A stretch of 64,000 nt of DNA from Escherichia coli. Its GTDB lineage: Bacteria; Pseudomonadota; Gammaproteobacteria; Enterobacterales; Enterobacteriaceae. The stretch lies in assembly GCF_051903065.1 (NCBI RefSeq), contig NZ_CP178438.1; one strand, 5' to 3'. Position 1 is the first letter of the stretch; every line of letters begins with the position of its first letter. Shown here in pieces: positions 52,784-52,885 of this stretch. The translations under genes were made by a program, and so were the position numbers. The notes beneath the pieces are model-generated. The model made no database searches and was not told where the DNA came from. It worked only from the letters and a program-made list of their open reading frames with translations.

Positions 52784-52806
52784 TCACTACATGTGTTAAA
52801 TATTTA

Positions 52807-52840
52807 AACGGGCGTATAACACGCCCGTTGTTTTATTTAT
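52807..52840 (+). terminator. Rho-independent terminator of icd
   Basis: aacgggcgt-ataac-acgcccgtt hairpin followed by gttttatttat. Confidence 0.85.
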
Positions 52841-52885
52841 GTGGATATTATTAATAGCATATCGAGCATATTTATATAAAACCTA

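Follow-up and report, generated by a model that had tools for sequence, protein, structure and literature searches.

The window, by which we mean the whole 64-kb stretch of E. coli DNA analysed here, carries a full-length icd gene at 51533–52783 on the plus strand. The open reading frame encodes an NADP-dependent isocitrate dehydrogenase of 416 amino acids that matched the NCBIfam profile NF005425 over residues 1–416 of 416 (E=4e-259, profile search), and the 100%-identical genome NZ_AP045789.1 has an icd annotation at the same locus. Convergent with icd, at 52886–53209 on the minus strand, lies iraM, which is likewise annotated in NZ_AP045789.1 and encodes a 107-amino acid anti-adaptor of RssB (NF007393, E=3e-50). 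IraM is a PhoP-controlled regulator of RpoS stability. The next gene, ymgK, encodes a small protein and was placed at 53462–53506 on the minus strand by transferring coordinates from NZ_AP045789.1. The preliminary description of this DNA had reported an intact icd followed after about 100 bp by convergent iraM, and this was borne out in full: all 416 of 416 profile positions are present, the NF007393 match identifies IraM, and the spacer between the two genes is 102 bp long. Their contiguity is a structural observation, to which a test against chance does not apply.

The icd–iraM spacer (52784–52885) is made up of two parts. Its left part, 52784–52836, comprises the icd 3' UTR and terminator, whilst 52837–52885 forms the left edge of the AT-rich iraM–ymgK segment discussed below. 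The corresponding spacer between the icdC pseudogene and iraM in K-12 is of equal length and differs by six substitutions. Within the window spacer there is one strong stem-loop, at 52807–52829, with nine base pairs (six of them G–C) followed by a T-rich run. Terminator scanning, folding and phage annotation all mark this element, at 52807–52839 on the plus strand (the stem-loop and then GTTTTATTTA), as the putative icd terminator. A scan of 52600–53500 called three sites compared with 0.4 expected in shuffled sequence, the hairpin folds at -15.3 kcal/mol on the plus strand (z=-3.0) and -17.3 kcal/mol on the minus strand (z=-4.9), and its counterpart in phage 21 (OL657228) bears the annotation ‘terminator’. 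With its G+C-rich stem-loop and a T run directly 3' of the icd stop codon, it has the form of an intrinsic (rho-independent) terminator. The hairpin would be expected to end icd transcription and perhaps that of iraM too; it is possibly bidirectional, serving the convergent gene as well. An Rfam scan of the whole window at gathering thresholds returned nothing in the icd–iraM region, its only matches being the rne 5' UTR and SraB elsewhere. One variant of the hairpin is seen in E. coli 15.TR.026_OXA (L091 7408–7430, equivalent to window 52807–52829), where the stem is the same and the loop is inverted, reading CGTGTTATACG compared with CGTATAACACG in the window; two IS200C copies are inserted in that strain right after the T tract of the hairpin. 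The GC content of the window falls from about 50% to 27–33% directly after the icd terminator.

In the K-12 reference sequence (NC_000913.3), icd is annotated at 1195123–1196373, ‘cryptic prophage e14’ at 1196209–1211412 (15,204 bp) and icdC at 1211413–1211577, followed by iraM, ymgK, ymgL, ycgX, bluR and bluF. Comparison of K-12 1194000–1216000 with the whole window by blastn gave two alignments only. The first pairs window 50409–52834 with the K-12 left flank through icd to 51 bp past the icd stop codon; the second pairs window 52619–57201 with K-12 from icdC rightward. Their overlap, 52619–52834, is the segment that is doubled in K-12, and window position 52619 accordingly corresponds both to K-12 1196209, the start of e14, and to 1211413, the start of icdC. 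The window is K-12 minus the e14 interval, collinear with the occupied reference on either flank, and in a three-way alignment the sequence past 52836 tracks the icdC side and not the e14 side. Apart from e14 and two unrelated differences, collinearity with K-12 (1142–1222 kb) extends across the entire window.

No trace of the prophage itself was found. The e14 interior had no match in the 64-kb window, the integrases IntE and Int21 had none below E=0.05 by tblastn, and no integrase or phage gene lies between icd and iraM. The 218-bp icd 3' segment is present as a single full copy, as follows from there being no icd-targeting element here; only its 48-nt terminator module recurs (53646–53694). 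The preliminary description had stated that e14, at about 15 kb, sits in the 3' end of icd in K-12 and parts icd from iraM, had concluded that the site in this DNA is empty, and had held that a contiguous icd–iraM order in K-12 would count against it. K-12 has no such order, since e14 intervenes, and the alignments to the icd/e14 junctions and to icdC support the description on each of these points. The flanks of the window are 1.2–3.2% diverged from K-12: the downstream flank (52619–57201, iraM to bluF) is 96.8% identical and the 50 kb upstream (1681–52834) 98.3–98.8% identical.

The attachment site had been put at the spacer, 52784–52885, and here the picture needs correcting. The duplicated segment does include the spacer's left half, as far as 52836, and excludes the right half, but the attachment point maps to 52619–52629 inside icd, the left boundary of homology being about 165 bp upstream of the spacer. 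Homology between K-12 attL and attR begins at the base equivalent to 52619, which is also the annotated start of e14, and the next 11 bases are identical in the two (ATGCTGCGCCA). The candidate attB core at this left end of phage–host homology reads ATGTTACGCCA on the plus strand of the window, identical to the K-12/e14 sequence at 9 of 11 positions and with two synonymous changes. From 52620 on, it is identical to the core of phage 1H12 and of the EC38 phage-21 record, both of which have the same TTA variant; the core at the start of homology thus matches that of the phages. Sequence alone places the K-12 crossover somewhere between 52619 and the first e14-specific substitutions at about 52655. 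The idea that ATGTTACGCCA might be a rare, integration-blocking core was rejected, the TTA variant being common, with examples in both copies of SCEC020026 and in O157:H7, GSH8M-2, phage 1H12 and the EC38 phage-21 record. The 71-nt stretch around the core (52590–52660) has an exact match in only four genomes, most others being 80–95% identical, because of the particular combination of nearby synonymous SNPs.

From the core the shared segment extends to 52836, and 52619–52836 (plus strand) is equivalent to the surrogate segment borne by e14 and phage-21-type phages, which comprises the final 165 bp of icd with its stop codon, the 3' UTR and the terminator. Free phage genomes match query positions 80/86–297, that is, window 52619/52625–52836. 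Host–phage homology runs out where the terminator T tract ends, at 52836 for the phage-21 type and at about 52834 for e14. We are confident that the window holds an unoccupied attB for the tyrosine integrases of e14 and phage-21-type lambdoid phages, a reading that none of the data contradict, and this site is predicted to be competent for integration.

Integration at this site proceeds by exchange of gene ends. Phages of the e14 and phage-21 types bring their own last 165 bp of icd together with the stop codon and terminator, equivalent to 52619–52836, and integrate at the left end of the homology, so that the resident icd 3' end is exchanged for the phage copy and, moved beyond the prophage, survives as the icdC pseudogene. 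Because the phages carry a replacement end, integration rebuilds an intact, terminated icd. The window would represent the substrate form of this reaction, with one copy of the segment, the terminator at 52807–52839 and then convergent iraM. Excision of e14 follows SOS induction and recombines icd with icdC, regenerating icd (bioRxiv 10.64898/2026.06.14.732165). The e14 site in K-12 icd goes back to Brody and Hill (1988) and Hill, Gray and Brody (1989), and Wang H. et al. (1997) name a shared attB for the insertion of 21 and e14 in their title, all as cited in PMC12803456.

Both free and integrated forms of such elements are found. The free phages 21, 4A7, ev017, ev207 and 1H12 each have a 212–218-bp icd fragment with stop codon and terminator adjoining int/xis. 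Occupied chromosomes show the arrangement expected from this exchange: SCEC020026 has icd, int, xis and further genes, then the icd fragment, then iraM; O157:H7 has int directly after icd; and in UTI89 the icd fragment follows sitABC-bearing prophage DNA. Further afield, GTDB species representatives of Citrobacter, Leclercia, Buttiauxella, Silvania, Pantoea, Enterobacter and E. albertii have IntE- or Int21-type integrases directly after icd, and second icd 3' fragments occur in those Enterobacterales genera and in E. albertii. In Enterobacter cloacae a strongly diverged icd C-terminal fragment (49% amino acid identity) lies about 1.8 kb downstream of icd and is probably the fossil of an old integration.

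The state of the site was surveyed in 5426 complete E. coli genomes (5425 for the count of contiguous sites). With contiguity scored as at least 80% of a 901-nt probe in one place, icd and iraM are contiguous in at least 3013 genomes, a lower bound for empty sites because genomes that lack iraM can be empty too (strain 1380 is an example). DNA of the e14 left interior was found in 283 genomes, all at least 99% identical and largely K-12 laboratory derivatives, and a phage-21-type arm with int in 1616. The empty state is thus the commonest in the species and K-12 is the exception; being the majority state, it is not distinctive of this strain. Three separately deposited complete genomes (23CRST027, 23CRST031 and ECNB21-M121) are 100% identical to the window across flank and site, and in the next-closest four genomes by upstream flank the site is empty as well.

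The preliminary description had gone on to propose that the window defines the native 3' end of icd. This survives in part: the end is not of the e14 type, but it is 13 of 165 nt away from K-12 icdC and resembles the copies in the phage-21 family. Compared with the e14-borne copy, 28 of 212 nt differ, residue 398 is E in the window and D in K-12 Icd, and the e14 type is the only one clearly excluded by the sequence comparison. Nor does the window have the K-12 icdC allele. Identity over 218 nt is 92.7%, and the 13 differences in the last 165 bp include two at the amino acid level (D410 and K414 in the window, E at both positions in icdC). The divergence of icd from K-12 is uneven, at 1.75% over the first 1086 nt and about 8% over the last 165 nt, and the 3' end must therefore have its own history. 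Pairwise distances between copies of the segment reveal a single outlier, the e14 type, with empty sites, displaced fragments and phage-21-type copies intermingled in one cloud and no separate phage clade.

Where did this end come from? One possibility is that the present end was donated by a phage, a phage-21-type prophage having once occupied the site and then been removed not by Int/Xis excision but by homologous recombination close to the right-hand end of the 218-bp duplication. This would account for the closeness of 52625–52836 to free phage copies (4A7) and the EC38 phage-21 record, at 97.6–98.2% identity (4–5 differences) as against the 92.7% for icdC, for the complete identity of phage 4A7 to the window over 52652–52804, and for a 54-residue Icd C-terminus shared with all phage-21-family copies, bar a single substitution in ev207; the concentration of divergence in the icd end points the same way. 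Related empty sites are equally close, however (3–8 differences), and do not separate from phage-21-type copies. Furthermore, the C-terminus of the window (...DAIIKNM, the K414 type) recurs in two sister species, E. whittamii and Escherichia sp. E1V33, which suggests an old chromosomal allele copied by phages. No integrase was found within about 0.75 and 2.1 kb downstream of icd in E. whittamii and E1V33, respectively, and the genome scan gave one match in each, although the downstream context available in these outgroups is short and differs from that of the window. On balance we think a former lysogeny here rather improbable; a vertically inherited chromosomal allele, either the source of the phage copies or still exchanging with them, appears more likely. 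Since the window's 3' end is indistinguishable from phage-21-family copies, to call it native is plausible but not proven.

Two further explanations bear on the emptiness of the site itself. That a prophage between 218-bp duplications was collapsed out during assembly is very unlikely: direct repeats of about this length can in principle collapse in short-read assemblies, but at least three separately deposited complete genomes show the contiguous arrangement with 100% identity, and it recurs in 3013 overall. Least credible of all is a recent precise excision from a K-12-like ancestor, for although e14 is able to leave in this way and regenerate icd from icdC, the 1.2–3.2% flank divergence refutes an ‘e14-minus’ derivative, the last 165 bp are 13 nt and two amino acids off icdC, e14 DNA occurs only in 283 near-identical genomes of the K-12 type, and the ycfZ–ymfA deletion and IS903-type insertion described below also separate the window from K-12. 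As the flank divergence and icdC differences show that the window is not e14-cured K-12, icdC is the better guide to the native end in K-12 itself.

The 3' end of icd (52590–52660 and 52619–52836) varies far more than the remainder of the gene, and its variants are shared in mosaic fashion among empty sites, attL/attR copies and free phages, a pattern that indicates ongoing exchange between phages and chromosomes. Variation in icd was reportedly the subject of a study by Wang, Whittam and Selander in 1997. The gene is also an MLST locus. As an exchange zone between chromosome and phage, its 3' end does not provide purely vertical markers.

On the far side of the spacer, self-comparison of the window revealed that the icd 3' UTR and terminator module (direct repeat 1, 52788–52834) has a second copy between ymgK and ymgL (direct repeat 2, 53646–53694), also on the plus strand and conserved in 3996 genomes. 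The repeats are 47–49 nt long and identical at 46 of 48 positions, with a local score of 65 compared with 14.6 +/- 2.4 in shuffled sequence. With a median of two copies per genome, the module is not a dispersed repeat family. Between them the two copies bound an AT-rich segment of 858 bp (52835–53692, 27–33% GC) that contains iraM and ymgK and was found in 3900 of the 5426 complete genomes; in 1462 genomes there is instead a single-terminator junction, about 27% being without the segment. In UTI89 (B2), one terminator is followed directly by the DNA that lies after the second copy in the window (ymgL, ycgX), and in 15.TR.026_OXA one terminator is followed by two IS200C copies and then by ymgL/ycgX-side DNA. 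These junctions show that iraM–ymgK is missing exactly between the repeats, and it is also precisely absent from ATCC 11775-type (B2) genomes. The order of icd and then iraM is therefore itself polymorphic.

How the segment came to be flanked in this way is a matter for tentative proposals. It may be, though we regard this as doubtful, that iraM is all that survives of the cargo of an ancient element inserted at the icd terminator/att region, in which case the second terminator would be a fossil of the displaced icd end and the spacer a seam of that older nested event. The alternative is that an unrelated duplication of the module was followed by repeat-mediated deletion in the lineages that lack iraM. 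No decayed icd coding sequence was found upstream of the second terminator copy (local score 17, shuffle mean 17.1), and a search of the literature on a horizontal origin of iraM at icd found no relevant paper. It was also considered whether a prophage in O157:H7 abuts the second terminator copy; this was rejected, PV15-279 having the usual icdC–iraM–ymgK–direct repeat 2 order. Matches to iraM at 60–80% identity were found in 854 records, a range that fits iraL, the described paralogue of iraM (PMC4045071). The same paper states that in K-12 iraM is carried on the e14 prophage. However, the e14 interval annotated in K-12 does not include iraM, and the gene is present in the window and in thousands of genomes without e14; it is therefore not e14 cargo.

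Two other differences separate the window from K-12 over its length. At 38087–38090, 1,291 bp are missing (K-12 1180391–1181681, comprising ycfZ and the part of ymfA beyond its first ~14 codons), leaving the order cobB, a REP-like sequence, the ymfA 5' stub and potD; the contiguous cobB–potD form is found in 574 of 5425 genomes. Near the other end, an IS903-type (IS5 family) insertion sequence of 1,057 bp (61395–62451) interrupts the ycgH autotransporter gene. Its transposase open reading frame spans 61427–62395 (NF033579, E=6e-107), its terminal inverted repeats begin GGCTTTGTTGAATAAATCG, and it is flanked by a 9-bp target duplication, GTTCAAGTC, at 61386–61394 and 62452–62460.

As a structural annotation, the empty icd site is correct and already known: the site, its occupation by e14 and phage-21-type elements and the regeneration of icd go back to cited work from 1988–1989 onward. 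The value of the annotation lies in marking a strain without the e14 genes (mcrA, lit, pinE, the C0293 sRNA and others) and with a landing site free for icd-targeting phages. The refinements made here concern where the site actually lies, how often it is empty and what ‘native’ can mean for its 3' end.

The closest counterpart of the window is the K-12 e14 site itself (icd/icdC), with which it shares the locus, the left boundary, the flanking genes and the 102-bp spacer before iraM. The K-12 site is occupied, whereas that of the window is not, and the alleles differ at two of 11 bases in the first identical block. In e14-cured K-12 derivatives and evolved e14 excisants (bioRxiv 10.64898/2026.06.14.732165) the architecture is the same, the icd 5' part being joined to the displaced 3' end and followed by iraM; those strains, however, carry the icdC sequence (E398/E410/E414) whilst the window has E398/D410/K414 on a diverged background. 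Phage 21 offers the second comparison. The ICDH-like fragment and terminator beside its int/xis match window 52625–52836 and encode an identical C-terminal peptide, and within its family 1H12 and the EC38 record share the TTA variant of the window where homology begins, but the int, xis and arm sites of phage 21 are all absent from the window. More distantly, the site resembles those used by islands that target tRNA and tmRNA genes, where integration likewise falls in a conserved gene 3' end that the element restores, the duplicated fragment constituting attR. It differs from sites of that type in that the icd target is a protein-coding housekeeping gene and that the duplication, at ~218 bp including the terminator, is unusually long.
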